A stretch of DNA of 29,419 nucleotides from Clostridia bacterium (GCA_030526225.1 JAUNDF010000021.1:1-29419); one strand, 5' to 3'; counted from the stretch's first letter, positions 2,304 through 25,884 are shown. A program made the numbers and translations. The notes: generated from the letters alone by a model not told the origin.

Positions 2304-4138
2304 GCTTCCTCCGCTGCCTGCCGCATCAAATCGGGCAGGGCCAGTACGTTGCTTCGGTCCATGGCCTTGTAATCCACCTTGCCGCCGGTGACGGCGTTTT
2401 CCCGGGCAGATAAATCATCCAGCTGCTCCCATGGAATCAGGCAGGCGTGAAGGCGCTTTTGCGTATCCTTGCCGATGCGGATGGCTTCCCCTGCGGCATA
2501 GCGCGATGCCCGTTCCTGCCAGATGTCCTCCGGCATGGTGTGGTAGCCCATCACCTCATGGAAGGCGCACCAGCGAAGATGTTCTGTCTGGGCAAGGTTC
2601 TCCAGCATGTCCTCCCGGGGCGGCCAGGGCGAAGACAGCGGCGCATCCGGCGCAAGGCCCACCGCGGCCGGAAAGGCAGGGGCAAAGTCGGCGCTGGCCC
2701 TGCAGCTGATGCGGCTGAAGTAGTCACACCTTTTCCAGTTATCCTCCGCAGACAGGCCGTTTCCGGCGCAATACTGCTGATTGATGACCATGGCCAGCCG
2801 GTCCAGCTGATGGAAGTCCAGCGCATCGGAGGCGTAGATGCTCTGCCACTGCAGGTCGGTTTTGCCGCCCTCGGAGCAAAGCAGGCTTTCCTTGGTCAGC
2901 TGCACAATGGCGGGCAGATGCTCAAAGCCGCCGTACCATGCGGTGATTTCCTGTGCAATCTCCTGATTCTGCTGCTTTCGTCCGGTGGAGATGACGATGT
3001 AGTTCACCGAATCCCGGTATTCCCGCAGGAAGGCGTAGAAATCGTTGGAGCGGCCGTCGGAGGCGTGAAAGTTGATGTGATGGTTTTGCAGCAGCTGGCT
3101 GTCAAGCAGGCTGCCGGCCTGTGCATGGCTGTCGAAGACATCCGCCCGGAAATCACTGCCGCAGAACTGACCGTTCATGGCCAGCTGCTTCAGGGCGGCG
3201 CGGCCCATCTGCCCGAAGCCGATAATCACCGCGTGAACATCCTGCACGGCTCTGCCGGCTTCGTCAAAGGCGATGGTGCGGCAGGGGGGCAGGCGGCGGG
3301 TCATCAGCCGGGCGGCCAGTCCGTAGGCATCATAGGCGAATACGTTGCCAAAGCCGGGGCCGTCCTGTGCCAGAAGATATCCGGCCTGCTGCTCCTCTAC
3401 CCCTTGCACAAGCAGGGTGGTCTGCCGGGGCTGGATGCCCCTGTCCGTCAGGGCGGAAAGCAGCTGCTGGGCCCAGGCAAGGTTGCGCAGTCCGTCGGGA
3501 TGCATGGCGGCGGCATGGAGCATCCGCTTGCCCGGCACCATGCCGATGTGCCGCAGGAAGGCCGCATCCGGGCTTAAGGCCGAGGCGGATTTTTCCACCA
3601 GCCCGCCCATGGCCGCAATGGCGGATTCGGCGGCGCTGTCACAGCTGTCATCCACAAACAGCAGTGTCAGATGCTGCTTTGCCTGTCTTGTGCGGGCATA
3701 GTCGATGGATTCGCTGTTGGCGCCGAAAATTACCAGCAGATCGCCGCGGCGCAGCAGCATGGTGCGCAGCCGGTGCAGCAGCCTGCCGCCCAGCGTGGCA
3801 ATGGCTGTGCTGGCGGTGGCATAGAAGGCAAGAAAGTGGCCCACCCAGAACACGGTCATGGGGATTTCTCCCTGCCAAAGGGGCACGGACTGCACCAGCG
3901 CGGCATCGTTAACGCCGCCGAACATGCGGCAGACCGTCAACAGCGCCCGCAGAACGGGAATCACGCCCAGCCCGCCCTGCCACATGAAGGCATAGCCGTA
4001 CATCACAATGCCGATGCAGGCGGCCATGGCGGCGGAACAGCCGGTCATGCGGTTGCGGAAGGAGGTATCGGCGGCCAGGTTCAGCAGTGCCGCCAGAAAC
4101 AGGGCGGCAACCAGCAAAATGGCAACAAAGGCGGTCAT
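2300..4138 (-). CDS. multi-pass membrane protein with Rossmann-type (TrkA-N-like) modules and a C-terminal RyR-like domain
   Basis: 612-aa ORF. AGGAGG lies 8 nt upstream of the ATG at 4138. The N-terminal ~130 aa are hydrophobic helices. It has a GxGxxG motif (VIIGFGQMGRAALKQL) and a W-x-C-x-Y-F-x-R-x-S-x-RA-x-AD motif shared with the neighbouring channel. The C-terminal EHLRWCAFHEVMGYH...HACLIPWEQLDDLSARE resembles bacterial RyR (PF02026-type) domains. The family call is from memory, not from a search. Confidence 0.7.
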   Translation of the reverse strand: MTAFVAILLVAALFLAALLNLAADTSFRNRMTGCSAAMAACIGIVMYGYAFMWQGGLGVIPVLRALLTVCRMFGGVNDAALVQSVPLWQGEIPMTVFWVGHFLAFYATASTAIATLGGRLLHRLRTMLLRRGDLLVIFGANSESIDYARTRQAKQHLTLLFVDDSCDSAAESAIAAMGGLVEKSASALSPDAAFLRHIGMVPGKRMLHAAAMHPDGLRNLAWAQQLLSALTDRGIQPRQTTLLVQGVEEQQAGYLLAQDGPGFGNVFAYDAYGLAARLMTRRLPPCRTIAFDEAGRAVQDVHAVIIGFGQMGRAALKQLAMNGQFCGSDFRADVFDSHAQAGSLLDSQLLQNHHINFHASDGRSNDFYAFLREYRDSVNYIVISTGRKQQNQEIAQEITAWYGGFEHLPAIVQLTKESLLCSEGGKTDLQWQSIYASDALDFHQLDRLAMVINQQYCAGNGLSAEDNWKRCDYFSRISCRASADFAPAFPAAVGLAPDAPLSSPWPPREDMLENLAQTEHLRWCAFHEVMGYHTMPEDIWQERASRYAAGEAIRIGKDTQKRLHACLIPWEQLDDLSARENAVTGGKVDYKAMDRSNVLALPDLMRQAAEEA

Positions 4139-4171
4139 GCAATCATCCTCCTGTGGGGGATTTGTGGGGGG

Positions 4172-5641
4172 TTACTTGGGCAGCTGTTCCCAGGCCAGAT
4201 CATCCTTGGCCTGCTCCGCCTCGCTGAGTTCGTCAAAGGGAACCATGCAGGGGTGGGTTCTCAGGAGCGCATCCTTATGGGGGCCATAGCGCCAGCCGTG
4301 CAGTGCATGGAAGCGCAGCCAGCGGTCGTGCTCGTTTTGGCGGCACATGCGGCGCAGGGAAGCATCCGCCTGCTCAAAGGGCGTCCCCTGCAGGAGGGAC
4401 AGCTTGACGGGAATGTGGTCTGTGGCGGCGCGGTTGGAGGCGCGCAGGAAGCAGGAGAGTTCACCCCACGCCGGTGCAGCGGGATTGACGGCGCGGTAGG
4501 CTTCGTGCATGGCGCGGGCGGCTGCATCCTGTGTTTGCTTCATGACAAGGTCTTCGGTGTACAAATCGGCTTCTTTGCCGAAGGCTGTGCCGGGAACGGT
4601 TTCGTCATCGGTCAGCACATGCAGTGCGCCGGTGACGGGCAGCCAGCGGCTGATGCGCAGGGTCAGGGCGGCGTTCTCCTGCCGGTCATCCCCGCAGATG
4701 ATGATGCGTTTCGCGTTTTGAAGTGCTTCGGCGGTCCATGGCGCTGTGTGGAAAAACAGGCTGTCTTTGGTGCCTGCGGCTTCACCCATGGCAAAGACCT
4801 GCTGCAATCCCTCGTGCAGGCGGCGGTATTCATCCCAGTTGCCGTACAGATGCCATGCAAGGGTGCGGAAGGGCGTGAGGCAGCTGACATTCACCGCCTG
4901 ATTCATCAGGGCTTGAGCATAGCGGCCATCCCCCAGCAGAAGGACGGTGTCTTCCCCGGCTTGCAGGGGGAAGCGCTGCCAGTAATCCCGCGCACAGCTT
5001 TCACAGGCATGGAAGAAGGTCACGCCGGGGAGGGTGTCTGTTTCCACACTGCGGCAGTACAGCCGACAATCATCGGTGGATAGGGAACGCAGGGCCAGGG
5101 CATCGGCGCGGTTGGCGGCTTCGTCTTCATCCATCAGGAACAGGGAACGATGTCCTTTGGCAAAGCAGGGGAAGGCAGACAGGGCGCGAATGTCACCGGC
5201 AAAATGCACGGGGCTTCGGGCGTGACCGCCGCTTCGGCAAAGCACCGGCAGTGCTTCAGGGTGATGGCGCAGGATGTCGGCCATCAGGGTGCGGGCCTCC
5301 GCGTTATCCGAAGAGAACACAGCCCACGGACGGCGGCGGTTTTGCCACAGGCGCAGGGTGGGGAACAGGCGGCCTGTCATCAGCCCCCAAAAGGCACTGA
5401 CGGCCAAGGCCAGAAAGCCCAGACTCAACAGCAGAAATACACTGCCGATGAGCTTGCCCGCCGTTGTCACCGGATACAGATCGCCGTAGCCCACGGTGGT
5501 CATGGTGACAAGGGAGTACCAGAAGGCATCCCCGAAGGTGCGGATAGGCCCGCCGGTGCCCTGTTCAAATATGGTCAGCAGCAGCACCAGCAACAGATAA
5601 CAAACCGCGGCCGAAGCAGCGCGGCATATGGCTTTTTTCAT
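4172..5641 (-). CDS. 2-TM potassium channel (TVGYGD selectivity filter) with a cytoplasmic Rossmann-like region and a C-terminal RyR domain
   Basis: The pore is [18 protein letters not shown], flanked by helices [15 protein letters not shown] and [22 protein letters not shown]. The C-terminal [46 protein letters not shown] is a typical bacterial RyR-domain signature. I set the start at ATG 5641 (MKKAICR...) because cGGAGGttgctcccATG gives an 8-nt spacing. The ORF-track start at 5911 is an unsupported upstream extension. Stop is TAA. Confidence 0.85.
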
Positions 5642-5892
5642 GGGAGCAACCTCCGGCGCATCAAGGGTGGAAAATGATGGATTGATATCCTTTAGTATAC
5701 CCGATTCTGCGGGCAAATGCAAAGCCTTTGCGTTTTCTCCCTTGACCGGAGCAACCGTATCTTTTATAATCAAAATGACGAAATCTGCGCTTTCCTCGAC
5801 CGGAAAACACATAATATCAGAACGAAATCCCTGTTTATCCATGGAAGTTGACATATATTGACAGCATCCCGCCATCCGGGATGGGAGGAACC

Positions 5893-8800
5893 ATGCTGAA
5901 CAAGATGACAAAACTCCGTCAGCGGCTGCTGTGCCTGATGGCAGCCCTTATGCTGCTGATGACAATCCTGCCCGCAGCATCAGGTGCTGATGCACAGCAA
6001 AGCCGGGAGTGCCTTCGGGTGGGCTGGTATCAACTGGATATGTTTCAGGAGGGCATGGGCGATGATGCGCCCAAGAGCGGCTACAGCTATGACTATCTGC
6101 AGAAGGTATCCAATTATACCGGCTGGCAGTATGAATATGTGTACGGCACATGGCCGGAGCTGTTCGGCATGCTGGAGCGGGGCGAAATCGACCTGCTGGC
6201 CGGTGTATCTGCCACGGCAGAGCGGCGGCAGGTGATGCTCTTCCCCGATTCCGCCATGGGATAGGACGTATACTGCCTGTACCGCCATGCGGATGATGCC
6301 GCCCTGTCCTCGGGGGACCGTTCCCTGCTGGCGGGCAAAAAGGTGGGCGGCATTGCCGACAACCGCATGAGCGACATGGCCATGGTCTGGAGCGAGCAGA
6401 ACGGCCTCGGGCTGGAGCCGGTGCTGTTTGAGACACAGGCAGAGCAGCTGGCGGCCTTTGAGCGCGGCGAAGTGGACCTCATCTGCCAGACACAGAGCAA
6501 TGTATCCGGTGTTGTGGGCCTGAGCATGGTGGCCAAGCTGGGGGAGGAGCCCTACTATCTGGCGGTATCCGGCAAACGGCCGCAGCTGCTTGCCCGTTTG
6601 AATACGGCGCTGAACCGTATGTTCTCCATCGAGCCCTTTTTGCTGCAGAACCTGCAGTACGCCAACTATTCCTCTGCCATCACCAGCAAAGATTTGACGG
6701 AGGAGGAAAAGAACTGGGCGGCTTCGCATCCGGTGATGCGGGTGGGCTATCTCAACAATTATCTGCCCTATTCCGCCAAGGGCGAGGACGGCGAGGCCGC
6801 GGGCCTGATGACCGATGTGCTGGCGGGCATCCTGACCGCACTGGGGCTGGATAACCAGGTTCGGGTGGAGTATGTTCCGTCGGACAATTACAACGATATG
6901 ATGGCAGCACTCCGGCAGGGCGAGCTGGATGCGGCCTTCCCGGTGTACAGCCGTCCGTGGGATCTGGAGCAGCTGCAGCTGGCGGCCTCCACGCCGGTGG
7001 TCACCTGCAGTGAAAGCTTTGTGTTCCGCGGCCAGTATGACAAAAACCAGCTGAAGACCATTGCGGTTAACAGCAACAATCAGATGCAGATTGCCTACAC
7101 CCTGCGGACCTTCCCCGGGACGGAGCTGCTGCTGCTGCGCTCCATTGACGAATGTCTGGAGGCCGTGCTGGAGGGCAGGGCGGACGGTACGGTGCTCAAT
7201 CCCCTGCGCACGGAGCTGGTGACCGCAGCAGAAAGTACCGCTCCCTGTCCTATGTGCAGATGGGCACGCAGGACAGCCGCTGCTTCGGCGTAAGGGATAC
7301 GGATACGGCGCTGCTGCTGCTGCTCAACCGCGGCCTGCGGCTGCTGGGCTCCTCCTATGGCATGGAGCATTCCTACAAGTACATCGAGGCACTCAATCCC
7401 TATACCTTTGCAGATTTCCTGATTGACAATATGCTGTGGTTCGGCCTGTTCTTCCTGCTGGTGCTGGTGGTCATCATCACCCTGCTCAGCTACAACCTGA
7501 CCAAGAAGGAGCAGAACATGCGTCAGGTCAACGCTCTCAATGACAAACTGAGCGTGAACCAGCGCAAGCTGCAGGATCAGGTGAACATTGCCGGCGGTCT
7601 TTCCAACGCGTATTTCTCCGTGTATTTCGCTGATTTGGCCACCGGACGCTACAAGGCGGTGAAGGAAATGCCCCGGGTGCAGGAGCTGCTTCGGGGCTGC
7701 CGCACGGTGCAGGAGGCCATGGACATCGGTCTGCCCCACATGATTGACCATGACGATCTGGCGAAGATGCAGGAGTTTACCGACACCGGCACCCTGATTG
7801 ACCGCCTTGGGGACAGCGACAGCATCAGCGCCGAATTCCATTCCGTTGACCCGCAGCGCCCATGGTGCCGCGCCAGCTGGATTGTTGCCGGGCGCGACAA
7901 GGGCGGCGAGGCGGCCTCCGTGCTGTATGCGGTGGAGGATATCACCGCGCTGGTGGGCAAGCGCATGGCCCGCGAAAAGCAGCGCCGGGAGGCGGAAAAG
8001 CTGGAGCGCCTGCGCCTGCAGACCATGACGGAGGCCATCCACGGCAGCTTCAAGCGCGGCTTGAATGATGACGAGTTCACCTTCCTGATGGTTTCCGAGC
8101 AGCTGGCGAAAATGCTGGGCTACGAATCACCCCAGGAGATGATTGATGCCGGCAGCGGCTGCATGATGAACCTGATGGACTTCAGCGACACACGGCACGA
8201 AATCGAGACCGTGCTGAAGGACGTGCACAGCGGCAAGATGTACACCATGCACTACCGCCTGCGCTGCAAGGACGGCAGCTGGAAGAATGTAGAGGACCGG
8301 GGCCGCCTGATTCGCAACCCCGACGGCGTGGAGGAGTTCTGGAGCTTCATCGTCGATCAGGATACGCTGACCAGAACCGAGGAAGCCCTCTCCCGGGCTA
8401 ATCAGGCCAACGCGGCGCTGCAGCAGGCCCAGCAGGAGCTGGAGGCCGCCCGCGACACAGCCGAAAAGGCAAGTCAGGCCAAGAGCAACTTCCTGTTCAA
8501 CATGAGCCACGACATCCGCACCCCCATGAACGCCATCATCGGCTACACAGAGCTGCTGGGCCGCCATCGGGAGGAGCCGGAGAAATTCAGCGACTATCTG
8601 CAGAAAATCCGCTCGGCCAACAGCTTCCTGCTGTCGCTGATTAACAACGTGCTGGAAATGGCCCGCATCGAGGCCGGCAAGATTACCTTCGATGAGCAGG
8701 TGCACCGCCCCGGCAGAATCATGGATGACATCACCGCCGTGTATGAGGAGCTGATGCGGCAGAAGGGCATCGACTTCCGGGTGTCTGTGAGCATTCGCGA

Positions 8801-9185
8801 CCGGCTGATTTACTGCGATTCCCTGAAGGTGAAGGAAATCCTGCTCAACCTTGTTTCCAACGCTTACAAGTACACCCCCGCAGGCGGCAGGGTGAACGTG
8901 GAACTGACGGAGATTCCCTCCATGCGCCCGGGCTGGACCAGCGTGAAAACCGTGGTATCCGATACGGGCATCGGCATGAGCGAGGAATTCCTGAAGACCA
9001 TCTTTGAGGAATTCACCCGGGAGCATACCTTTACCGAAAACAAGATTGAGGGCACGGGCCTTGGCATGCCCATCGTGAAGAAGCTGGTGGAGCTGATGGG
9101 CGGCTCCATCACCGTGGAAAGCACACCGGGCAAGGGCACTGCCTTCACCATAATTATTTCCCCACCGGCTGGCGCAGGAAATTGA
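5893..9185 (+). pseudogene. sensor histidine kinase with a signal peptide, two periplasmic SBP_bac_3-type solute-binding domains, TM, PAS, HisKA and HATPase. It is interrupted by an in-frame TAG (6262-6264) and a 1-nt frameshift near 7232-7234.
   Basis: The standard-code pieces are 5848/5893..6264, 6343..7293 and 7152..9185. Pieces 1 and 2 share a frame, and the text reads straight through the TAG (..LFPDSAMG*DVYCLYRHADD..KKVGGIADN..). Pieces 2 and 3 join if gcagcagaaag(7231-7235) once had one more A (..ELVTAAEKYRSLSYVQMG..). The total length of 3293 nt is 3n-1, which fits one lost base. The TM helix is MLWFGLFFLLVLVVIITLL, the H-box is FLFNMSHDIRTPMNAIIGY, and the N/G boxes are NLVSNAYKYTP, DTGIGM, GTGLGMPIVKKLV and GKGTAF. 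A GGGAGG RBS precedes ATG 5893. Confidence 0.75.
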
Positions 9186-9210
9186 ACAGCACGAGGCCGA
9201 GGAGGAGGCT

Positions 9211-10053
9211 GTGGATGCGGATGCCTTTGCCGGCAAGCGCATCCTGATGGCAGAGGACAACGAGCTGAATGCCGAAATCGCCACAGAGCTGCTGGAAGCC
9301 GTGGGCTTTGAGGTGACATGGGCGCAGGACGGTATCCTTTGTGTGGATGCACTGCGCAAGGCCCCCGCCGGGACCTTTGACCTGATTTTGATGGACATCC
9401 AGATGCCCAACCTCAACGGCTACGATGCCGCAAGGCGCATCCGTGCTCTGGAGGACAGGGAAAAGGCGGGCATCCCCATCATCGCCATGACGGCCAACGC
9501 CTTTGAGGAGGACAAGCGCAACGCCCTGCGGGCAGGCATGAATGCCCACATCCCCAAGCCCATCAAGGTGGACGAAATGCTGAAGACCCTTGGCCGGGTG
9601 CTGGCGCTGAGCAAAATCAACAGCGAGACCTTCCCGGCCTACAAGGCACAGCTGGGGGACTGCGCACCCTTCCGCGCCTTTGAACAGGAACACGCTGACT
9701 GCGGCTGGTTCATCTACGAAGCCTTCGGGGACGAGCGCATCCTCTGTGCGGATGGAGCCCTGTGCCGGATTTTCGGCTGCAGCAGCTTCCGGGAGTTCCA
9801 AAAGGCGGTCTCCTGTTCGTTCAAGACCATGGTGCATCCGGAGGATATCGACCGGGTGGAGGCCGAAATCCGGCGGCAGATTGATGACTCCGGCGACAAC
9901 ATCGACCGGGTCAGCTACCGCATCATCCGCGCGGACGGTCAGGTGCGCCGGGTGGATGACATCGGCCGCAAGGTGCTGCTGCAAGAGGGCATTCCAGTGT
10001 TCTATGTGGGCATTGCGGATGTCACGGGGGAGGAAGACCTCCAACAAGCCTGA
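9211..10053 (+). CDS. response-regulator receiver + PAS domain protein (possibly the frameshifted C-terminal part of the preceding kinase)
   Basis: Receiver motifs are ILMAEDNELNAEIATELLE, DLILMDIQMPNLNGYDAARRIR, PIIAMTANAFEED and GMNAHIPKP. A PAS-like region follows (FIYEAFGDERILCADGALCRIFG...VSYRIIRADGQVRRVDDIG). A GAGGAGGAGG run lies 6 nt upstream of the ATG, but the same frame is open back to 9154 (LFPHRLAQEIEQHEAEEEAV). Removing one base from the ttt/cccc run at 9157-9163 would fuse it to the kinase (..GTAFTIIIPHRLAQE..), like the fused paralogue at 1..803. Confidence 0.8.
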   Translation: MDADAFAGKRILMAEDNELNAEIATELLEAVGFEVTWAQDGILCVDALRKAPAGTFDLILMDIQMPNLNGYDAARRIRALEDREKAGIPIIAMTANAFEEDKRNALRAGMNAHIPKPIKVDEMLKTLGRVLALSKINSETFPAYKAQLGDCAPFRAFEQEHADCGWFIYEAFGDERILCADGALCRIFGCSSFREFQKAVSCSFKTMVHPEDIDRVEAEIRRQIDDSGDNIDRVSYRIIRADGQVRRVDDIGRKVLLQEGIPVFYVGIADVTGEEDLQQA

Positions 10054-10071
10054 AACGGGAGAATATGCTGA

Positions 10072-11676
10072 ATGAAAGAATTGATGTCCTTTTTCGCCGT
10101 CAGCCGGGATGATTACAGCGAAATCCGCCGGGAGGCATGGGAGGAGAGCTGGCTGAGCCTTCGCCTTGTCAGCGCCATTGCCGCCATTGCCTTCGGCATC
10201 ATGACCGGGCTGGGGCTGCTGATGACAAGCTACGGAAAGAACGTGACCATATATGCCGTGTATACGGTGCTGTCGGCGGTCTTCTGGGGTATTTCCTTCC
10301 TGAAGACGGACAGCCTGCCCCTGAAGGCATCGGCCTGCTACGGCTGCTATGCCATGCTGCTGAGCATGGGCATTGTCATGGGCACCCTGATTTCGCCGGA
10401 TATGCTGACCGTCAGCTTTATCGTGATGATGCTGGGCATTCCGCTGCTGTTCACCTTCCGCAGCTGGATTTGCAACGCGGTGATGGCTGTGTGCGTCATC
10501 ATCTACTGCGCGGCGGCCAAATACACGCAGCCGCCTGAAATCTTTTCCGTCAATATGCTCAATGTCATCCCCTACAGCATCATCAGCATGTTTGTTACCT
10601 CCGCCACCATGCGCAGCAAAATGCAGCGCGTGCTGATGCGTACCCGGCTGCAGGCGGAAGAGGAGGCCCGCAGAGCCACAGAGGACAGGATGAACCGCTT
10701 TGACGCGTTTATCACCGACATGGTGCGCTATGCCACCAGCGAGGAGGAGCTGGAGAAGATTGTGGAGCAGCTGGTGGAATACATCGGCGAAAAGCTCCAT
10801 TCCGACCGGGCGTACATCTTTGAGAAAAACGAAAAGGGCGGCTTTGACAACACCTACGAGTGGTGCCGCGAGGGCGTTTCTGCCGAGAAGGACAACCTGC
10901 AAAACGTTCCCTTTGAGGGCGTGATTGAGCCCTGGTACACCCAGTACAAAAAAACGGGCAGCGTGATTATCGAGGACATTGAGGAGTACAAAAAGGTCAG
11001 CCTGCCCATCTACAATCTGTTAAAGCCCCAGGGCGTGGAAACGCTGGTCACCGGCCCCATCATCATCGAGGGCAAAATGGTGGGCTTCTACGGCGTGGAC
11101 AATCCCCCCAGGGACATGATTCACGACATTTCCGACCTCATCTGCGTGATGGAATTCGTGGTGTCCTTCATCATGCGCATCCGCGACAACGCCTCCGAGC
11201 TGGCGTATTCCGCCGTGCATGACCAGCTGACCGGCTGCAAAAACAGAAAGGCGCTGGAATGGCTGTACCGCAAGCAGTATGACGAAAACGGCTCGCTGGC
11301 GGTGCTGATGTGTGACCTGAACAGCCTGAAGGAAATCAACGACCGTCAGGGTCACGATGCCGGTGACAAGTTCATCCGGCGCACGGCAGAGGTGCTGCAG
11401 TCCGTATTCGGCACGGAGCATGTGTACCGCATGGGCGGCGACGAGTTTGCGGCCATCATTGCGGGCATCAGCCAAAAAGAATTCAGCGAAAAGATTGAGC
11501 TCAGCCGCATCCTGCTGGGCAACACCGCCTCCCTTGGCGTTGCCTACCGGGAAACCATGTGCGATGTGGGGTTTGATGCGGTGCTGAAGGACGCGGATGT
11601 GGCCATGTACCACCAAAAGGGCAGCTACTACGCCAATGCCACCGTGGACCGCCGCAGAAGAAGAACAGACGATTAA
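10072..11676 (+). CDS. membrane-anchored GAF-GGDEF diguanylate cyclase
   Basis: 534-aa ORF. About 5-6 N-terminal hydrophobic helices are followed by a GAF-like region (RAYIFEKNEKGGFDNTYEWC...GFYGVDNP). The GGDEF domain has HDQLTGCKNRKAL, LAVLMCDLNSLKEINDRQGHDAGDKFI and YRMGGDEFAAI. Stop is TAA. Confidence 0.9.
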   Translation: MKELMSFFAVSRDDYSEIRREAWEESWLSLRLVSAIAAIAFGIMTGLGLLMTSYGKNVTIYAVYTVLSAVFWGISFLKTDSLPLKASACYGCYAMLLSMGIVMGTLISPDMLTVSFIVMMLGIPLLFTFRSWICNAVMAVCVIIYCAAAKYTQPPEIFSVNMLNVIPYSIISMFVTSATMRSKMQRVLMRTRLQAEEEARRATEDRMNRFDAFITDMVRYATSEEELEKIVEQLVEYIGEKLHSDRAYIFEKNEKGGFDNTYEWCREGVSAEKDNLQNVPFEGVIEPWYTQYKKTGSVIIEDIEEYKKVSLPIYNLLKPQGVETLVTGPIIIEGKMVGFYGVDNPPRDMIHDISDLICVMEFVVSFIMRIRDNASELAYSAVHDQLTGCKNRKALEWLYRKQYDENGSLAVLMCDLNSLKEINDRQGHDAGDKFIRRTAEVLQSVFGTEHVYRMGGDEFAAIIAGISQKEFSEKIELSRILLGNTASLGVAYRETMCDVGFDAVLKDADVAMYHQKGSYYANATVDRRRRRTDD

Positions 11677-11684
11677 CAGGTTGG

Positions 11685-11720
11685 CCCCTTCCGGGTAAAT
11701 TCGGAAGGGGCTGATTTTTT
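11685..11720 (+). terminator. rho-independent terminator after the GGDEF gene
   Basis: A perfect 9-bp stem, ccccttccg (11685-11693) with cggaagggg (11702-11710), has an 8-nt loop and is followed by ctgatttttt. Confidence 0.75.
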
Positions 11721-11743
11721 GTTCATATTCAGTTGACAAACGG

Positions 11744-11752
11744 TGTTATAAT
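11744..11752 (+). promoter_or_regulatory. extended -10 promoter element (TGtTATAAT) upstream of the activase-like gene
   Basis: tgttataat is at 11744-11752, about 95 nt upstream of ATG 11846. The nearby TTGACA at 11733 is only 8 nt from the -10, so it is not a usable -35. Confidence 0.4.
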
Positions 11753-11845
11753 GTACGATGGGCCAATTTTCATTATGAATCCATCAGGGTATCAGGTGAA
11801 AATGCCCGGCTGAAATATAGACAACCAGAAAAGAGAGCATGACTG

Positions 11846-14800
11846 ATGAAAATCTATCACGCAGGAATTGATATCGGTTCCACCACGGTGAAGCTGGTGG
11901 TTGTGGATGATAACGGCCAAATTCTCTTTGGCGATTACAGGCGGCACCATGCCCATACCCGGGAGACGGTTTATGATTTGCTCACCGATGCCCGGGCGCT
12001 GCTGGGCGAGTGCAGCCTGAAGGTAAAAATCACCGGCTCCGGTGCCATCAACCTCGGCAAAGCGCTGGGCATCGGGTTTATTCAGGAGGTGGTGGCGGTT
12101 GCCGCTGCCCTGAACCATGCTGCCCCCCAAACGGATGTGGCCATCGAGCTGGGCGGCGAGGATGCGAAGATTATCTACTTCGCCGGCGGTCTTGAGGAGC
12201 GGATGAACGGCGTTTGCGCCGGCGGCACGGGCTCCTTTATCGACCAGATGGCATCCCTCCTGCAGACGGATGCCGAGGGGCTGAACGAGGCTGCCAAGGA
12301 GTACAGGCAGATTTACCCCATCGCGGCCCGGTGCGGCGTGTTTGCCAAGTCGGATATTCAGCCGCTGATTAACGAGGGCGCCACCAAGGCAGACCTTGCC
12401 GCCTCCATCTTTCAGGCGGTGGTTAACCAGACCATTTCCGGTCTGGCCTGCGGCAAGCCCATCCGCGGCACGGTGGCCTTTCTGGGCGGTCCGCTGCATT
12501 TTCTCACATAGCTTCGGGCGGCCTTTGTCCGCACATTAAAGCTGACGGAAGAGACCGCGGTGATGCCGGAAAACTCCCACCTGTTTGCGGCCATGGGCGC
12601 GGCACTGGAGGCACAGGATGCCGATGCGGTGCCCCTTTCCAACCTGATTGAAAAGCTGCAGTCCGGGGTGAAGGTCAATTTTGAAATGCCCCGTCTGGCT
12701 CCCCTGTTCGGCAATCAGGAGGAGTATGACGAGTTCTGCCGCCGCCACCAAAAGGCAACAGTGAAGCGGGCGGAGCTTGCGGCCTACCGCGGGAACTGCT
12801 ATCTGGGCATTGATGCCGGCTCCACCACCACCAAGCTGGCGCTGATTGGCCAACAGGGTGAGCTGCTGTGGGATTACTACGCCAACAATCAGGGCAACCC
12901 CATCCTGACGGCGCAAAACGCCATCCGTCAGCTGCAGCAGCTTATGCCCAGGGGCGCGGAAATTGCCCGGGCCTGCTCCACCGGCTATGGTGAAGCACTG
13001 CTGAAGGCCGCCTTCTCCCTGGACGAAGGCGTGGTGGAGACCATCGCCCACTGCACCGCCGCCACCTTCTTTGACCCGGCGGTGGACTGTGTGCTGGATA
13101 TCGGCGGTCAGGATATGAAGTGCATCCGGCTGAAGAACGGCACGGTGGACAGCATCATGCTCAACGAGGCCTGCTCCTCCGGCTGCGGCTCCTTTATCGA
13201 GAACTTCGCCACTTCCCTCGGCTATACCGCAGAGGGCTTTGCCAAGGAGGCGCTGTTTGCCGAATCTCCTGTGGACCTTGGCACCCGCTGCACCGTGTTT
13301 ATGAATTCCAACGTCAAGCAGGCCCAGAAGGAGGGCGCATCTGTTGCGGATATCTCCTCGGGTCTGGCATACTCGGTCATCAAAAACGCGCTGTACAAGG
13401 TCATCAAGCTGACATCCCCCGAGGAGCTGGGTCGGCACATTGTGGTGCAGGGCGGCACCTTCCACAATCAGGCGGTGCTTCGTGCCTTTGAGAAAATCGC
13501 CGGTGTGGATGCCACCTGTCCCGATATTTCCGGCCTGATGGGTGCCTTCGGTGCGGCGCTGGTGGCAAAGAACCACCATGCGGAAAAGAGCAGCATGCTC
13601 TCCTTTGATGAAATCCTGAACCTGTCCTATACCGCATCCTCCGTGCGCTGCGGCGGCTGCTCCAACCGCTGCATGCTCACTGTCAACCAGTTCCCCGGCG
13701 GCAGAAAGCACATCAGCGGCAACCGCTGTGAAAAGGGTGCCGGCAATACGGACAAGCAGGCACAGGCACCCAACATGGTGGCCTATAAGCGTCAGCGGCT
13801 GTTTGACTATCAGCCCCTTGCGGAGGATGCTGCCCAAAGAGGCACCATCGGCCTGCCGCGGGTGCTGAGCATGTACGAGAACTATCCCTTCTGGGCCACA
13901 TTCTTCGGCAGCCTTGGCTTCCGGGTGGTGCTGTCCCCCTGGTCATCAAGAAAAATCTACGAGCGGGGCATGGAGTCCATCCCCTCCGAATCGGAGTGCT
14001 ATCCGGCCAAGCTGTCCCACGGCCATGTGCAGTGGCTGATTGATCAGGGCATTACCACCATCTTCCACCCCTGCATCTTCTATGAGCATCAGGAGGCGAA
14101 GAACGCTCAAAACCACTACAACTGCCCCATTGTGGTTTCCTATGCGGAGAACCTGAAGAACAACATGGAAACCATCAGCAGCGGGGAAGTGCGCTACATT
14201 CGCCCCTTTATCGCCTTTACGGATGAAAAAACCGCCGCCGACCGGCTGGTGAAAACGGCGGAAAAGGAATGGGGCATCCCGGCAGGGGAGGTGCGCCGTG
14301 CGGTGCATCTGGCATGGGCCGAGCAGCAAAAGGCCAAGGCAGATATCCGCGCCGAGGGTCAAAAGCGCCTTGCGGAAATGGAAGCCGCCGGCGGCCGCGG
14401 CATTGTTTTGGCCGGGCGACCCTATCACATCGACCCTGAAATCAACCACGGCATTCCGGAGCTGATTGCCTCCTACGGCCTGACCGTGCTGACCGAGGAC
14501 AGCCTGCCCCTGAATGTGGCCCCGGAAAGCACCATCCGCGTGGTGGACCAGTGGGTGTACCATTCCCGCCTGTACAACGCGGTTGAATTTGTGGCCCGCC
14601 GCAACGATCTGGAGCTGATTCAGCTCAACTCCTTCGGCTGCGGTCTGGATGCCGTGACCACCGATCAGGTGAGCGAGATTCTGGAAAAGCACAACAAGCT
14701 GTACACGGCGCTGAAGATTGATGAGGTGAACAACCTTGGCGCGGTGCGCATCCGCATCCGGTCTCTGCTGGCGGCCATGGAAATCCGGCAGGAGAAGGGC

Positions 14801-16072
14801 ATTTGCGCCTGTGAAGGTGATGACAGCTACAAGCGTGTCGCCTTCACCAAAGAGATGTTCCGGGAGGGATATACCATTCTGGCACCTCAGATGAGCCCCA
14901 TCCATTTTGATTTGCTGGAGCCTGTGTTCCGCAAGCGCGGCTATCAGCTGGTGATGCTGGATAACGACAACCGGCAGGCCATCGACACCGGCTTGAAATT
15001 CGTCAACAACGATGCCTGCTTCCCCTCCATTACCGTGGTGGGGCAGATTATGCAGGCGGTGCTGTCCGGCAAGTATGATACCAACCGGCTGGCGGTGATT
15101 ATGAGCCAGACCGGCGGCTGCTGCCGGGCCAGCAACTATGTGGCCTTCATCCGCCGTGCGCTGGAAAAGGCAGGGCTGAGCCACATCCCCGTCATCTCCC
15201 TCAACGCCAACGGCATGGAGAAGAACGATGGCTTCCGCCTGTCCCCGGGGCTGATTGTGGATCTGGTGAAGGCGGTGGTATACGGCGATTTGCTGATGCG
15301 CTGCCTGTACCGGGTGCGCCCCTATGAGCTGGAGCCCGGCTCTGCCAACGCACTGCACCGCAAGTGGCGGGACATCTGCATTGAGGAGCTGACTTGCGAG
15401 CACGGCAAGCGCGGCTACCGGACGCTGTGCCGGCAGATTGTGGAGGCCTTTGACGCGTTCCCCATTGATGAAACTGTCAGGAAGCCCAAGGTGGGCATTG
15501 TGGGCGAAATTCTGGTGAAGTACATGCCCCTTGCCAACAACCATCTGGTGGAGCTGCTGGAGCAGGAGGGTGCCGAAGCCGTGGTGCCCGATCTGGTGGA
15601 CTTCTTCAACTACTGCGTGTATGGCGGCAAGTATCGCTTTGCCTTCCTCGGCGCGCAGAAGAGCAGCGACATCATCGCCAACATCGGTGTCAAGCTGATT
15701 CGCCGCATCCGCAAGCCTGCCCTTGATGCGCTGAAAAACAGCAAGCGCTTTGAGGTCCCCATGCCCATTGAGGACATTGCCCGGCAGACAAAGCCCTTCC
15801 TGTCCCTTGGCAATCAGTACGGCGAGGGCTGGTTCCTCACCGGCGAAATGATTGAGCTGGTCAAGACCGGCGTGCCCAACATTGTGTGCATTCAGCCCTT
15901 TGCCTGCCTGCCCAATCATGTGGTGGGCAAGGGTGTCATCAAGAAGCTAAAGGAAGCCTACCCGCAGGCCAATATTGCCGCCATTGACTACGATCCCGGC
16001 GCCAGCGAGGTCAATCAGCTCAACCGCCTGAAGCTGATGCTGACCACTGCCAAAAACCGCATGCAGGAATAA
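11846..16072 (+). CDS. acyl-CoA dehydratase activase-related protein (two BcrAD/BadFG-type ATPase modules + HgdB/DUF2229-like C-terminal region), full length only if TAG 12509-12511 is decoded
   Basis: The standard-code pieces 11846..12511 and 12560..16072 share a frame. Translation across the TAG gives ..VAFLGGPLHFLT*LRAAFVRTLKLTEETAVMPENSHLFAAMGAAL.., which continues a single ATPase module. There are two ASKHA phosphate-1 motifs (GIDIGSTTVKLVV and GIDAGSTTTKLAL) and a Cys cluster CGGCSNRC. The joined length of 1408 aa matches what I remember for this fused family (about 1400 aa). Stop is TAA. Confidence 0.85.
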
Positions 16073-16103
16073 GCATTCCTGCCTTCCCTATGGAACACAA
16101 AAA

Positions 16104-16160
16104 CGCTCCGGTGAATATCTGCGGCTTCATGCAGAATCATTCATCGGAGCGCTTATTTTA
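16104..16160. terminator. candidate terminator hairpin between convergent genes
   Basis: cgctccg (16104-16110) pairs with cggagcg (16145-16151). An inner ctgc/gcag stem sits in the loop, and cttatttta follows. Confidence 0.4.
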
Positions 16161-16223
16161 TGGAAGAAGCATTTGACCGTCATCGGCTTGCCTTGGCCTG
16201 ATTGGCAAATGCTGGTAAATGTG

Positions 16224-17273
16224 TTATGATGATGCCAGCTCCTGCATCAGCTCATGCACGGAGACGATGCGGTCAATCCGTCCGGCGTTGGCGCCGCAGA
16301 AGAGCAGACCGTTGTCCACATCCCCCTGTACGGCCATGATCAGCCGCTCGGTGATGCAGTAGGGGATTTCATTGGGCTTGCAGCCGGCCAGACAGCCAAG
16401 GCATTTTTTCGGGCGGAAGGTCTCCGTCTCCAGCTGCTGCAGAAAGCGGTTGCTGATGGCTCTGCCCGGCATGCCCACCGGAGACTTGATGATACGCAAA
16501 TCCCCATCGGCGGCGCTGATGTATGCCTGCTTGTAGGCATCGGCGGCGTCGCATTCGTGGGTGCACACAAAGCGGCTGGCCATCTGTACGCCGCTTGCCC
16601 CCAGAGAAAAGGCATGCTCGATGTCCTGCCTGTCCCAGATGCCGCCGGCCACAATCACAGGGATGGCGGTGCCGTTTTCTTCAGCCGTTTCGTTAACGAA
16701 ATCAATGATGCGGCGGATTTCCTCGTCATAGTCCGGGATATCCGGCAGCTGTTCCGGCTTAAAGCCCAGATGGCCGCCTGCCTTGGGGCCCTCGATGACC
16801 ACAAAGTCCGGGAGACGATGATCACTCCGCAGCCATTTTTTGATGATGACCTGTGCCGCCCGCAGGGATGACACAATGGGCGCAATCTTCACATCCGAGC
16901 CTGCGGTCAGTGCGGGCAAATCAAGGGGCAGACCGGCACCGGAAATGATGACATCCGCGCCGCAGGCCACCGCCTGACGGACATGGGCGTGGTAATCAGC
17001 CAGCGCCACCATGATGTTGGCACCCACAAGGCCATTGCCGCCCGAAAGCTGACGGGCCAACAGGAGCTGCTCCTCAATGGCCTTCAGATTGCATTCCTTG
17101 GGATTGTGCGGAAAATCCGCCATATAAAAACCAATCTGCGCCGTGGAGATGATGCCGATGCCGCCTTCTTTGGCCACGGCACCCGACAGCTTGCCCATGC
17201 TGACACCCACACCCATGCCGCCCTGAATAATCGGGATGGCGGCTGTTTTATTGCCAATCACCAATGGATTCAT
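16224..17273 (-). CDS. nitronate monooxygenase / NPD-family FMN oxidoreductase (FabK-like fold)
   Basis: MNPLVIGNKTAAIPIIQGGMGVGVSMGKLSGAVAKEGGIGIIS, GADVIISGAGLP, VIEGPKAGGHLGF and IPVIVAGGIWD are typical of the 2-nitropropane dioxygenase/FabK family. I set the start at ATG 17273 (GGAG lies 9 nt upstream). The ORF-track start at 17351 adds 26 unsupported residues. Stop is TAA. Confidence 0.85.
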   Translation of the reverse strand: MNPLVIGNKTAAIPIIQGGMGVGVSMGKLSGAVAKEGGIGIISTAQIGFYMADFPHNPKECNLKAIEEQLLLARQLSGGNGLVGANIMVALADYHAHVRQAVACGADVIISGAGLPLDLPALTAGSDVKIAPIVSSLRAAQVIIKKWLRSDHRLPDFVVIEGPKAGGHLGFKPEQLPDIPDYDEEIRRIIDFVNETAEENGTAIPVIVAGGIWDRQDIEHAFSLGASGVQMASRFVCTHECDAADAYKQAYISAADGDLRIIKSPVGMPGRAISNRFLQQLETETFRPKKCLGCLAGCKPNEIPYCITERLIMAVQGDVDNGLLFCGANAGRIDRIVSVHELMQELASS

Positions 17274-17340
17274 TTCAATACACTCCGTTCGTTTTGTCTT
17301 AACCAGTATAAACGCCCGCGGCCATCCGTTCAATTTACAG

Positions 17341-17362
17341 AAATGTGGCAATTGTCACATTT
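17341..17362. promoter_or_regulatory. 22-bp near-perfect palindrome, candidate TetR operator in the divergent intergenic region
   Basis: AAATGTGgCAATTGtCACATTT has perfect 7-bp arms, a palindromic CAATTG core and one mismatched pair. It sits about 20 nt upstream of the TetR RBS (AAGGAG, 17383-17388) and between the divergent starts at 17273 and 17396. Confidence 0.45.
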
Positions 17363-17395
17363 GGCGGCGGGGCGATGAAGCCAAGGAGCATGACC

Positions 17396-17899
17396 ATGGA
17401 AAAGAACGCGAAGCATTATCTGGCCGAAGCGCTGATTCTGCTGATGAAGGACTCGCCCCTGTAGGAGATTTCCGTCAGCCAGATTGTCCGGCGCGCCGGT
17501 GTATCCCGCATGACCTATTACCGCTATTTCTCCGACAAGGAGGAGCTGCTGCAGTTCTACATGAATTACCTTTTCTCCCTGTTTATGGAGCAGGAGGCGG
17601 TTTCGCATGCGCCCTTCGGCAGCAGGGAGCATGTGCGGGATACCCTGCTGTTTTTTCGGGATTACGGGGACTTTGCCCGGTGCATTTATCGCTCCGGCAA
17701 TGACGGCATCATGCTGCGGATGGTCAACCGCTACATGGCCATGCAGCCCGGCTTTGAAACGGCCAGCGCGGCCAGACGGTACGCCTTTTACTACTACGCC
17801 GGTGCCATCTACAACTGCTATATCGAATGGGCGCTGGAGGATTTTGCAACGCCGGTGGAGGAACTGACCGGCATCATCTGCGCCTTCCCGCGGCCATAA
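17396..17899 (+). CDS. TetR/AcrR-family transcriptional regulator, full length only if TAG 17462-17464 is decoded
   Basis: AAGGAG lies 7 nt upstream of ATG 17396. Translation gives MEKNAKHYLAEALILLMKDSPL*EISVSQIVRRAGVSRMTYYRYFSDKEELL. This is a canonical TetR N-terminal HTH with the TAG just before helix 2. The standard-code ORF (17510..17899) would start inside the HTH at the M of SRMTYY and has no RBS. Stop is TAA. Confidence 0.8.
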
Positions 17900-17902
17900 G
17901 AA

Positions 17903-17948
17903 AAACGCTCCCGGCACCTCAGCCATTGCTGAAGGGTCGGGAGCGTTT
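17903..17948. terminator. hairpin between the convergent TetR and CotH genes
   Basis: aaacgctcccg (17903-17913) pairs with cgggagcgttt (17938-17948). The loop contains a smaller cctcagc/gctgaagg stem. Confidence 0.55.
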
Positions 17949-17962
17949 GCGTGTCTTGGTTG

Positions 17963-19323
17963 TCAATTGGTGCCGAATACAATCAGCATCAGCTCATAAT
18001 CCGGCAGCTCGCGGATTTGGGCAAGGTTTTCATCCACCCATGCGATTCTGTCCCTGGTCCACTGCTTGATGGTCGCCACCTCGCCGTCGTAGGTGGCGTT
18101 TTCATCCAGCACATACGTGGGCGGGATTTCCTCCAGCTCGCCGTTCATGTAGGCGGTCAAATCGATTTCCTGCGGATTCAGGATGGTCTTGATGACGGGC
18201 CAGATGCTGTAGTTCAGCGCCTGTGCCGCGTACTGCTTTTGACTGAGCTCGTCAATCAGCCCGCCGTCTGAAGACGCATCGGTGAGGATGGCCTTCAGCA
18301 CCTGCCAGCGCTCCAGCACAAGCTGCAGGAAGGCGTCATCCGCCAGCAGCCTCTGCAGCCAGCTATTGTTCAGGCTGGTCAGCTGGAAGCCCTCGCTGTC
18401 CTCGTTCAGTGCACCCCAGGGGCAGTAGTCGAAATCCCACAGGGGCCGAAGAACAGCTTGCTGTCCTTTGTCTTGTAGAAATAATTGTTGCCGCCGCTGA
18501 TGCCGTCGGAATTTTTGGTGACCATCTGCATCAGGAAATAATCGGCGGCGCTGGTCACATCCATGTACTCCGAGTAGTGCACGCCGTCGGCATCGCACCA
18601 TGTGCCGCTCATCAACGCTTCATCCAGCCGGCGGATAAAATCAGCTGTGTCGGCCTTTACATCATCGGCAACATCGCTCTCAAAGCACAGGGATACCTGG
18701 CTGGGAAGATTGATATCGCCGGTCACGCTCAGGCTGAGCATGCAGGCACCGTCATCCTCATCCAGATCGATGGAATTGCCGGCAATGCGCACCTGATTGC
18801 CCAGCTCGTACACGCCCAGATATTTGCCGTTCATCATCAGATTCACCGGCACCATTTTGGGGGTATAGGGCAGGCCCAGCTGCTGAGCGATGCGGTAGGT
18901 CAGCTCGTTGCGCATCATGGTGGGGTCAAGGGCGTTGGCCAAAAGCACCCAGTGCTTGCCCTTGCCCATGCCCAGCAGATTGGCGCCCTTTTCCAGCTTG
19001 AATTTGTAGGGCTTCTTGTCCTGCTTCCAGGTGGAATTGCCGCGGCCGCGGATGTACGACAGGGTGTAGGCGGTCTCCGCAGGCTGATTGCACCCGTAGG
19101 CGTTGGTGTACCCATCGGGCAGGGTGATGGTCACCGTGCCGGTGCAGGTTGTTTTGTGGTCAGGGTCGCTGTGCATGGCATCGATGCCGTCCTCATTCAG
19201 GCTCAGGGATACCAGCGGAATGCCCGTCTCCAGCAGTTTTTCGGGGGTGATGTCCTCCGCACCCAGCGCGATGCAGGGAAGCATCACCAGCAGGGCCAGA
19301 AGCCAAATCAGTTTCTTCATCAT
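17963..19323 (-). pseudogene. cotH: CotH-family protein (secreted, with signal peptide) carrying a 1-nt frameshift in a G4/C4 run at 18442-18445
   Basis: AAGGAG lies 5 nt upstream of ATG 19323. The signal peptide is MMKKLIWLLALLVMLPCIALG. CotH signatures are NSTWKQDKKPYKFKL, KHWVLLANALDPTMMRNELTYRIA, VNLMMNGKYLGVYELGNQVR and GGNNYFYKTKDSKLFFGP. The text continues in another frame as LWDFDYCPWGALNE... to the TGA at 17963. Restoring ggcccCctgtgg (C5 instead of C4) joins the frames. The length of 1361 nt is 3n-1. Confidence 0.8.
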
Positions 19324-19495
19324 GGCTGCTCCTTTTTTGAAATGCAATGGTATCATTATACCCGGAACAGGGGAAGTGTGCAACAAAGGGATGCAAAGCC
19401 CAGGGAAGGCATGTGTACCGGCATGCAGGAAGAAATGATATCCTCTGCTGTTTGCAGCCAACGCAAACAATCCGGGACATATAAATAATGAATTG

Positions 19496-19654
19496 AAATG
19501 TAAGACTATCTATGCTACAGTAATAGTAAATCCAAAGAAGTCGGGTGTAAACGATGAAGGAAATGCTGATAAAAAAGAGAATTTCTTTCCAAAGAAAATG
19601 GCGCTTAATAAACTGGGCGTTAAGCAGATAACAGCAATTATTCAACGAGTGTGA
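19496..19654 (+). pseudogene. 3' remnant of a gene; its last ~23 codons are a diverged copy of the 3' end of the 19722..21227 gene
   Basis: The frame-2 stretch ..NADKKENFFPKKMALNKLGVKQITAIIQRV ends in TGA TAA. The second copy reads ..RRIKYFFPKKMALNKLGVKEIIAFLQRK, also ending TGA TAA. There is no start codon or RBS, and the frame opens right after a TGA at 19493. Confidence 0.4.
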
Positions 19655-19762
19655 TAACAATCAGGTGTTTTGTGAACGCTGTCCTGATGAACGCACAATC
19701 TATCGCAACGAGGTGAATTACATGGGCAATTATCCGCAAACACAGCAGAAAGCTGTTGAACT
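19581..19762. repeat. direct repeat, copy 1 (182 bp, roughly 90 percent identical to copy 2, no indels)
   Basis: atttctttccaaagaaaatggcgcttaataaactgggcgttaag ... caatcaggtgttttgtgaacgc.gtcctgatgaacgcacaatctatcgcaacgaggtgaatta.atgggcaattatccgcaaacacagcagaaagctgttgaact recurs exactly 1573 bp downstream. The repeat spans a gene 3' end, the TGA-TAA stops, the spacer, the RBS and the first 14 codons of the next gene. Confidence 0.9.
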
Positions 19763-21227: not shown

Positions 21228-21335
21228 TAACAATCAGGTGTTTTGTGAACGCCGTCCTGATGAACGCACAATCTATCGCAACGAGGTGAATTATATGGGC
21301 AATTATCCGCAAACACAGCAGAAAGCTGTTGAACT
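21154..21335. repeat. direct repeat, copy 2
   Basis: This is the same 182-bp unit as 19581..19762, offset by 1573 bp. Similarity stops at 21335/19762. Confidence 0.9.
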
Positions 21336-21342
21336 TTGGTGA
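21295..21342 (+). pseudogene. truncated duplicate of the first 14 codons of the 19722 gene (MGNYPQTQQKAVEL), ending at TGA 21340
   Basis: It has the same RBS and the same ATG context as 19722. The repeat ends after codon 14 and a TGA follows two codons later. Confidence 0.6.
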
Positions 21343-21402
21343 GCTGTCAATCACAAATTTTATTAGATTCCGGTATCAAAGCGCGGCAGAGCCCTGGCAT
21401 GC

Positions 21403-22011
21403 ATGCTGCTGAGCCATATAGGCATAACCGAAGTGAAGCAAGAGCAGCCAAAGCAAAAAACAACTGAAGAATTATAGGTACTGGGTTGTCAATAGGTATA
21501 TCGTAATCTTGTAGAAACCCTTGAGCAAGCAACTCAAGTTTCCGAAGGAAATCTGGCCATGTTGGTTGAAGAACAACTGGTAAAAGATAACGGCCAGACA
21601 ATGACCATTGACGAAATTATGAAACTCACACCATAGGCTAAAGCTCAAAAGGCTGCAAAGGAACTGAAAGCAAGAGAGGAAAGGAAACAAAAACTGTCAG
21701 AGATGCTGGAAAAAATGACAGTGATTGCTGAACGGGCTGACTTTTCCTTCAGCCATGATAGGGCAATAAAGCCGGATGGGCTGCGGTTTGCAGCCAGGTT
21801 TGAAGGTTGTGGCCGTGGCCATGAAGAAACGTATTTAGGCTATGTGCTTAAAGAGGGAATGTATTATTTTTATGAAGAGGACATTGCGCCGTCGGCAGGT
21901 TACTTTACATGGATTGTGTTGACCGTACCGGCATCAGCAATCAGCAACAAGGACGAGCTGAGGATATTGTGCGTTATTTTGGAGAAAAAGAGATTCCCAA
22001 GTCGTTGGTGA
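21403..22011 (+). CDS. hypothetical protein; the frame contains three in-frame TAGs; the start is uncertain
   Basis: Frame 1 is free of TAA/TGA from 21343 to the TGA at 22009-22011 (223 codons) but holds TAG at 21364, 21475, 21493 and 21634. Candidate starts are ATG 21403 (no clear RBS), ATG 21559 (GAAGGA 9 nt upstream) or ATG 21703 (the standard-code ORF). A terminator hairpin directly follows the TGA. Confidence 0.45.
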
Positions 22012-22015
22012 TTTG

Positions 22016-22043
22016 AGACCGGGAGCAGTCCCGGTCTTCTTGT
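22016..22043 (+). terminator. rho-independent terminator
   Basis: agaccggga (22016-22024) pairs with tcccggtct (22029-22037) across a 4-nt loop. tcttgt follows. Confidence 0.6.
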
Positions 22044-22094
22044 ATATCCAAAACCCAACGCTAGATGTGGGGGGAAGAATTTTGGGGTGATTTG

Positions 22095-22103: not shown

Positions 22104-22176
22104 CATGTTGATATATGTAGCTGGTTCTGTTCTAAATAGTTTTTGAACAATCAGAAGAATATGAAAGGAGAACAAT

Positions 22177-25876: not shown

Positions 25877-25884
25877 TTTGTTTC

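Follow-up and report, generated by a model that had tools for sequence, protein, structure and literature searches.

Genes at the locus and three in-frame TAG codons

The window analyzed here (29,419 nt; GCA_030526225.1, JAUNDF010000021.1:1-29419) covers essentially all of a 29,421-bp contig from the metagenome-assembled genome of a Clostridia bacterium. Positions 1-19,500, referred to as the host part, have a GC content of ~60% and carry chromosomal-type genes. The GC content is 0.37-0.50 from position 19,480 to the end, and this AT-rich part, referred to as the island, looks like a mobile defence island and not like a recognisable phage. Three genes of the host part are each interrupted by one in-frame TAG (amber) codon inside a conserved domain. 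They encode a solute-binding histidine kinase, an acyl-CoA dehydratase activase-related protein (activase), and a TetR regulator. The observation of these three codons is confirmed. The features of the host part on which the argument turns are the following.

6262-6264, + strand: TAG no. 1, residue 123 of the kinase precursor, in the first SBP_bac_3 domain (Pfam)
5893-9185, + strand: histidine kinase gene (two SBP_bac_3 domains, PAS, HisKA, HATPase_c), with TAG no. 1 and a -1 frameshift
12509-12511, + strand: TAG no. 2, codon 222 of the activase gene, in the first BcrAD_BadFG ATPase module
11846-16072, + strand: acyl-CoA dehydratase activase-related gene, 1408 codons (two BcrAD_BadFG modules, DUF2229, HGD-D-like)
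17462-17464, + strand: TAG no. 3, codon 25 of the TetR gene, directly before the helix-turn-helix (HTH)
17390-17899, + strand: TetR/AcrR regulator gene (Pfam TetR_N), divergent from the NMO/FabK-like gene
16224-17351, - strand: NMO/FabK-like gene, whose pairing with TetR is kept in contigs L163 and L167
17963-19470, - strand: CotH kinase-family gene, split in two by a -1 frameshift at a run of Cs

The in-frame stops of the host part amount to three TAGs in ~5800 codons, one each in three of ~13 genes. Universal single-copy marker genes do not occur in the window. No TAA or TGA stands in any real frame of the host part or of the island. A long open reading frame (ORF) at 3578-5677 that contains one TAG was considered as a fourth case and rejected as a GC-rich antisense artefact.

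Conserved genes interrupted by TAG

TAG 12509 lies in the context ..GGPLHFLT*LRAAF.. (the asterisk marks TAG), in a frame (11846-16072) with no other stop over 1410 codons. All 120 aligned activase homologues are uninterrupted at this column, and the residue found there is Glu in 105 and Gln in 14 of the 120. At the codon level, 78 genomes carry GAG (45), GAA (24), or CAG (9) at the column. The rest of the gene was directly seen to be intact. None of the 248 near-invariant columns in its first 616 residues deviates, as compared with 0-10 deviations in the homologues. This lack of decay means that TAG 12509 is either very young or translated. Truncated activase matches in a protein catalogue were considered as possible further in-frame stops and rejected; they look like partial genes, and the genomic loci hold uninterrupted matches of ~1400 codons.

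TAG 17462 lies in the context ..KDSPL*EISVSQIVRRAGVSRMTYYRYF.. in reading frame 17390-17899. All 18 TetR homologues are uninterrupted across the TAG, and the 24 residues that precede it are also conserved. The column holds Glu in the two nearest homologues (74% and 65% identity) and D/E/S/K/R in more distant ones. The Glu codon at this position is GAA in L163 and GAG in L167. No further decay was seen in the TetR gene when it was aligned with its homologues.

TAG 6262 lies in the context ..FPDSAMG*DVYCLY.. in reading frame 5848-7293. Among 29 aligned solute-binding matches, 28 are uninterrupted across this column and one is gapped at it. The column is variable in homologues (V/T/L/M/N/A/Q/I), of which the nearest is only ~50% identical. 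The same gene contains a -1 frameshift at an AAA run (7232-7234, region 7225-7241) that joins frame 5848-7293 to frame 7152-9185. A frame-corrected kinase query was covered to 98% by homologues of 762-792 amino acids, which are continuous across the frameshift.

A second -1 frameshift breaks the CotH gene at a GGGG run on the + strand (18442-18445, region 18430-18453). The Pfam CotH profile matches with positions 1-208 on ORF 18406-19470 and with positions 204-321 on the overlapping ORF 17963-18601. The original prediction for this window, which was made from the sequence alone, had overlooked both frameshifts.

The same prediction had placed the three TAG codons inside a solute-binding domain, inside the first ATPase module of the activase, and at the start of the TetR HTH. 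Coordinates, peptides, and Pfam domains (SBP_bac_3, BcrAD_BadFG plus DUF2229, and TetR_N, respectively) agree with it in each case. It had also named the motif F-L-x-E-L-R at the activase site, as a pointer to Glu or a similar residue, and the homologue alignment reads F-L-x-E-L-R/K with Glu or Gln at the TAG. Its claim that the downstream pieces lack a ribosome-binding site and are not independent genes held as well, because no good Shine-Dalgarno sequence was found at an in-frame restart codon within 50 codons downstream of any of the three TAGs. Uninterrupted homologues together with the lack of a restart with a convincing ribosome-binding site indicate that in each case TAG interrupts one gene and does not separate two.

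Agreement with a second assembly

The stop codons and frameshifts could in principle be artefacts of the reads or the assembly, for example where coverage is low or where a long-read or flow-based platform miscounts homopolymers. In line with this explanation, both frameshifts are single-base homopolymer deletions (apparently A4 to A3 and C5 to C4). The window was compared with Logan contigs of run SRR24915835, which come from a different assembler. Four of them are 100% identical to the window over ~15 kb in total, in the following stretches.

9492-12844: contig L001, including TAG 12509
15998-19610: contig L162, including TAG 17462, the CotH frameshift, and the junction of host part and island
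21306-26252: island
26267-29343: island

Identity therefore extends over two of the TAGs and one frameshift. TAG 12509 and TAG 17462 are interior to Logan contigs, and thus no competing allele split the assembly graph there. Exact-protein look-ups aimed at TAG 6262 or at sequence beyond the contig end found nothing. The other exact-protein look-ups matched only Logan contigs of this one run. With the organism seen in a single run, the two assemblies, Logan and the metagenome-assembled genome (MAG), probably draw on the same reads, which is a point in favour of error. No publication on run SRR24915835 was found in the literature.

Other observations speak against error. If three nonsense codons were due to error, ~60 wrong substitutions would be expected in 19 kb, but the activase agrees with its homologues at all 248 near-invariant columns. 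An 8-kb contig of another organism from the same run carries eight intact genes. A methylation motif or other systematic cause was considered and rejected, because no motif is common to gga TAG gac, aca TAG ctt, and ctg TAG gag, the contexts of the three codons. Consensus error behind the TAGs is thus unlikely, and error as an explanation of the whole pattern appears very improbable.

TAG as a sense codon in the neighboring island

The island is physically joined to the chromosome, as the junction lies within Logan contig L162. Four of its genes contain 13 in-frame TAGs in ~1855 codons, and none of the four ends in TAG. Its features are the following.

19480-29419: AT-rich mobile defence island (GC 0.37-0.50), running off the contig end
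19722-21227, + strand: gene with five TAGs, in a frame (19632-21227) that is open for 532 codons without TAA or TGA in DNA of 42% GC
21343-22011, + strand: reading frame with four TAGs, for which coding over the whole stretch is less certain
22483-24606, + strand: BnzB-like or PDC-M09A-like defence gene (PADLOC), with TAG 24469 internal and the real stop TGA at 24604
24948-26172, + strand: TAG-free mobility and regulation block (TnpV, two HTH_17 genes of excisionase/AlpA type, small membrane protein)
26460-27428, - strand: PDC-S02 homologue of 322 codons, with in-frame TAGs at 27363, 27147, and 26694 (PADLOC, E = 2.6e-47, full-length match)
27679-28881, - strand: TAG-free Fic-domain gene matching the SoFic defence system (Pfam, PADLOC)

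The PDC-S02 homologue is 42% identical from end to end with a Streptococcus salivarius megaplasmid protein and also aligns with 18 further members of the family. Across its three TAGs, no invariant residue of the family is lost, and the gene caller of a public catalogue called the 322-residue gene through them. Further evidence comes from the PDC-M09A match. When the 45 codons past TAG 24469 were added, the matched profile positions extended from 85-203 (36.9 bits) to 85-274 of 282 (45.7 bits). To judge from these alignments and from the long frame that stays open across five TAGs, TAG is a sense codon in the four genes. The claim of the original prediction that the AT-rich element is recoded for TAG is in this way supported. 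Since these genes are not decayed, TAG is translated, now or very recently, where the island lives.

No phage structural, replication, or lysis genes were found in the visible island, and PHROG gave matches to nothing but excisionase/HTH families and families without an assigned function. Searches for near matches to the island in phage or plasmid records (GenBank phages) and for relatives in IMG/VR gave none.

The gene with five TAGs is flanked by a direct repeat of 196 nt (19570-19765 and 21143-21338, 93% identity). Each copy contains the tail of one reading frame (..FFPKKMALNKLGVK..) and the leader of the next, which suggests that gene cassettes were duplicated. The Logan contigs L162 and L165 both have a break within these copies. 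L165 also departs from the window after 26252, and its positions 5000-5096 are only 85% identical to 26192-26288. This divergence suggests that the sample also contains this part of the island as a second copy or as the variant of another strain.

The TAG-laden defence genes (PDC-S02 and BnzB-like) might stay silent until a recoded phage that suppresses TAG infects the cell, in other words they might act as a sensor of genetic-code switching. No paper describing such amber-gated defence was found in the literature.

Suppression, nonsense mutation, or reassignment

The three host TAGs may be read through by the cell, or the genes may be freshly broken. The explanation to which we lean, with less than even confidence, is that the TAGs are lineage-specific amber substitutions tolerated by TAG suppression. 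In its favor count the restriction of in-frame stops to TAG in both parts of the contig, the undecayed TAG-bearing genes of an island that is joined to this chromosome, the otherwise faultless activase, and the lack of an evident minor allele at TAG 12509 and TAG 17462. The weights given to this and the other explanations are a matter of judgement, not of computation. An amber codon is one step from codons for Gln, Glu, Tyr, Lys, Ser, Leu, or Trp. Comparison with the homologue codons directly displays this single-step distance here. As each TAG is one step from a plausible ancestral codon, it is compatible with mutation and with a decoded codon alike.

Plain young pseudogenes rank a close second and are a serious possibility. 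According to this explanation, the host has the standard code and the TAGs are unread, and three nonsense mutations and two frameshifts have hit dispensable accessory genes. The predominance of TAG would follow from the composition of a GC-rich genome, in which the most frequent one-step precursors are GAG, CAG, AAG, and TGG. The TAG genes of the island would be translated only under certain conditions, for example when a recoded phage infects or is induced, or else in a different host.

Several findings speak for this explanation and weigh against suppression. The two -1 frameshifts, which lie within the same 13 kb, are real disruptions that cannot be suppressed, and one of them is in the very kinase gene that carries TAG 6262. 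The codon usage of these genes directs 52-58% of single-base nonsense paths to TAG. Three TAGs out of three then have P ~0.14-0.19 under random nonsense mutation (P ~0.04 under a pure G:C-to-T:A spectrum), and the view of the original prediction that this count mildly favors decoding by the host does not survive. The premature stops stand inside conserved domains and have no functional restart. The relatives, as described below, use the standard code, and TAG is very rare in the host part. No tRNA or Rfam family was found anywhere in the window including the 10-kb island (ARAGORN; Rfam at the gathering threshold and at E up to 1), and no element-encoded suppressor tRNA was found in the visible 10 kb of the island. 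Annotation also bears on the matter. The protein numbering of NCBI in the window (MDO4483706.1, MDO4483707.1, and MDO4483711.1) skips the activase, from which we infer that the pipeline treated the gene as a pseudogene.

A further point on the same side concerns the TAG-free genes of the island (TnpV, the HTH genes, the membrane protein, and SoFic), which have 847 codons together. In being divided into TAG-free and TAG-rich genes, the island looks like recoded prophages, for which conditional suppression, active at certain times only, has been proposed (10.1101/2021.08.26.457843). By this likeness, host genes would be unprotected in the normal state. The hosts of the recoded prophages were reported to have the standard code, and in-frame host TAGs were not described in them (10.1101/2021.08.26.457843).

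Against plain pseudogenes stands the density of apparently very young lesions. The host part has five disruptions (three TAGs and two frameshifts) in four of its ~13 genes. All of them are within the 13 kb adjoining the AT-rich part, where four of eight adjacent genes are hit. This density is far above the usual, and the activase shows 0 of 248 deviations. By our estimate, four disrupted genes out of 13, all young, are hard to obtain at ordinary pseudogene rates and are easier to explain if the TAGs are not lesions, which leaves two frameshifted genes. In addition, pseudogene formation gave no TAA or TGA nonsense, and it leaves the presence of a TAG-sense island next door as an unexplained coincidence.

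Host-wide reassignment, in which the bacterium natively decodes TAG with Glu or Gln as the best candidates, would account for the frequent TAGs of the AT-rich island and the rare TAGs of the GC-rich core by composition. TAGs are indeed in frame in core and island alike. The island is not a recognisable phage, and a non-phage element is expected to depend on the translation of its host. No gene ends in TAG among 11 in the host part and nine in the island, which also agrees with reassignment. However, TAG accounts for only 14 of 194 stops (7%) in GC-rich relatives, and at this baseline 0/11 in the host has P ~0.44. The absence of TAG terminators from host genes is therefore without weight.

Evidence against reassignment came from the relatives. 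The nearest ones available, L003 (~80% identical activase) and the contigs L163 and L167 that share TetR/NMO synteny, were directly observed to end genes in TAG, and they use the standard code. In other words, TAG reassignment as a clade-level trait was not found in L003, L163, or L167, and any TAG decoding must be specific to this lineage. A scan of genome contigs with the activase for a sister genome gave a best match of 81% identity without synteny of neighboring genes, and a scan of metagenome contigs with the GGDEF neighbor for a sister strain gave a best match of 51% identity; neither scan found a sister. Moreover, three TAGs in ~5800 host codons are far from equilibrium usage, TAG-free genes stand beside TAG-rich ones in the island, and the frameshifts require a separate cause. 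Two sources (10.64898/2026.05.24.727570; PMC8629427) describe no bacterial TAG reassignment besides pyrrolysine use. Reassignment throughout the host thus seems unlikely. An early stage of genome-wide reassignment, with ambers spreading into core genes beside a non-phage TAG-sense island, is doubtful to the same degree.

The original prediction had set two models against each other, and the one in which only the AT-rich element is recoded is now favored, with core TAGs that may be tolerated by suppression. Its lean to the other model, decoding by the host itself, was not upheld in view of the TAG-terminated genes of relatives and the two frameshifts.

Which residue might be inserted at TAG? 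The TAG columns are Glu, Gln, or variable and are not Lys-specific. A Codetta-like sum over five columns (three in the host part and two in the island) gave Glu +5 bits, Lys -0.1, and Gln -2, and the activase column dominates this sum. The columns appear to fit a polar residue with Glu scoring best, which accords with suppression and with host-wide reassignment alike. Glu as the inserted residue is a lead only, as mutation of GAG to TAG predicts the same result. Nothing of the pylTSBCD or methylamine methyltransferase kind, as would point to pyrrolysine decoding, was found in the 29-kb window.

A proposed model of tolerated amber substitutions

We infer the existence of a decoder in the cell, its action on host messages, and its place of encoding. 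In the proposed model, each TAG would have arisen by a single-base change of a sense codon, with GAG (Glu) the likely ancestor in the activase and TetR genes. The lineage in which the amber substitutions arose has standard-code relatives, and the substitutions would persist in otherwise intact genes through a TAG-decoding activity, most simply a suppressor tRNA. Four genes of the neighboring island would depend on the same activity. With an active suppressor, the cell would produce the kinase-domain, activase, and TetR proteins at full length; with an inactive one, translation would end at TAG. Such a state would be an early and ambiguous stage, not an established genetic code of the host.

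Other features of the window

The genes of the host part comprise a hybrid kinase fragment, a TIR/Sel1-repeat protein, a membrane protein, and an ion-channel/RyR protein. They are joined by the solute-binding histidine kinase, a response regulator with a PAS domain, and a GAF-GGDEF protein, and by the activase, NMO/FabK-like, TetR, and CotH genes. Three of them form a - strand trio at 906-5911.

906-2303, - strand: TIR-like/Sel1-repeat gene
2300-4138, - strand: unannotated membrane protein of 612 residues, overlapping the TIR-like/Sel1-repeat gene by 4 nt
4172-5911, - strand: RyR-domain ion-channel protein

This trio may be a second defence-like cluster. An ORF on the + strand at 831-2372 was rejected as an antisense artefact.

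The response-regulator/PAS gene and the GAF-GGDEF gene (9154-11676) share the same frame with 18 nt between them and are parted only by two TGA codons; the shared frame is probably a coincidence. The tetranucleotide CTAG is absent from positions 1-19500, where ~9.6 are expected from its trinucleotides, and occurs eight times in the island vs 13 expected. Its absence from the host part may reflect a CTAG-specific restriction system or a general avoidance of CTAG in the lineage.

Significance and comparison with known systems

If the three TAGs are read through, this natural bacterium would be in the "ambiguous intermediate" state that codon-reassignment theories require and that is rarely seen. 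Ambers would be entering conserved chromosomal genes while relatives keep TAG as a stop, and TAG recoding would extend from phages to a non-phage defence island. If early host-wide reassignment were true, it would be the first bacterial TAG sense reassignment outside pyrrolysine use. If the TAGs are merely fresh nonsense alleles, the finding is an ordinary one, and the recoded defence island is noteworthy in its own right. The interruptions also have an effect on annotation. The pipeline split the kinase and TetR genes, the kinase into MDO4483706.1 and MDO4483707.1, and gave the activase no protein.

In laboratory amber-suppressor strains such as E. coli supE and supF, a suppressor tRNA that inserts an amino acid at TAG makes amber alleles of otherwise intact genes tolerable. 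The single in-frame TAGs in otherwise intact genes of the window are similar to this situation. The difference is that the present case concerns a natural, uncultured gut-type bacterium with a postulated suppressor. Ordinary MAG pseudogenes likewise have premature stops and homopolymer frameshifts in accessory genes, which are split or dropped in annotation. Unlike them, the window has an unusually high density of apparently very young lesions, nonsense codons that are TAG only, and an adjoining TAG-sense element.

Stop reassignments in prokaryotes involve TGA (tables 4 and 25) and, in some archaea, UAG to pyrrolysine (PMC8629427; 10.64898/2026.05.24.727570). The window shares with such genome-wide reassignments a stop codon that is found inside conserved genes and avoided as a terminator. 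Those reassignments, however, extend over entire clades and large numbers of genes, and a dedicated tRNA and changes in release factors accompany them, whereas here relatives have the standard code and the host part has three TAGs in ~5800 codons.

The recoded prophages offer a further comparison. Garnet and Topaz are TAG-recoded prophages that lie integrated in genomes of Prevotella and Oscillospiraceae with the standard code (Borges et al., 10.1101/2021.08.26.457843). Unlike them, the visible element here has defence genes plus TnpV and HTH_17 in place of phage structural or lysis genes, no suppressor tRNA lies in the window, and the host genes themselves carry in-frame TAGs. As in Garnet and Topaz, a low-GC element with many in-frame TAGs lies beside higher-GC genes of an Oscillospiraceae-type host, and the integration and regulation genes of the element are TAG-free.

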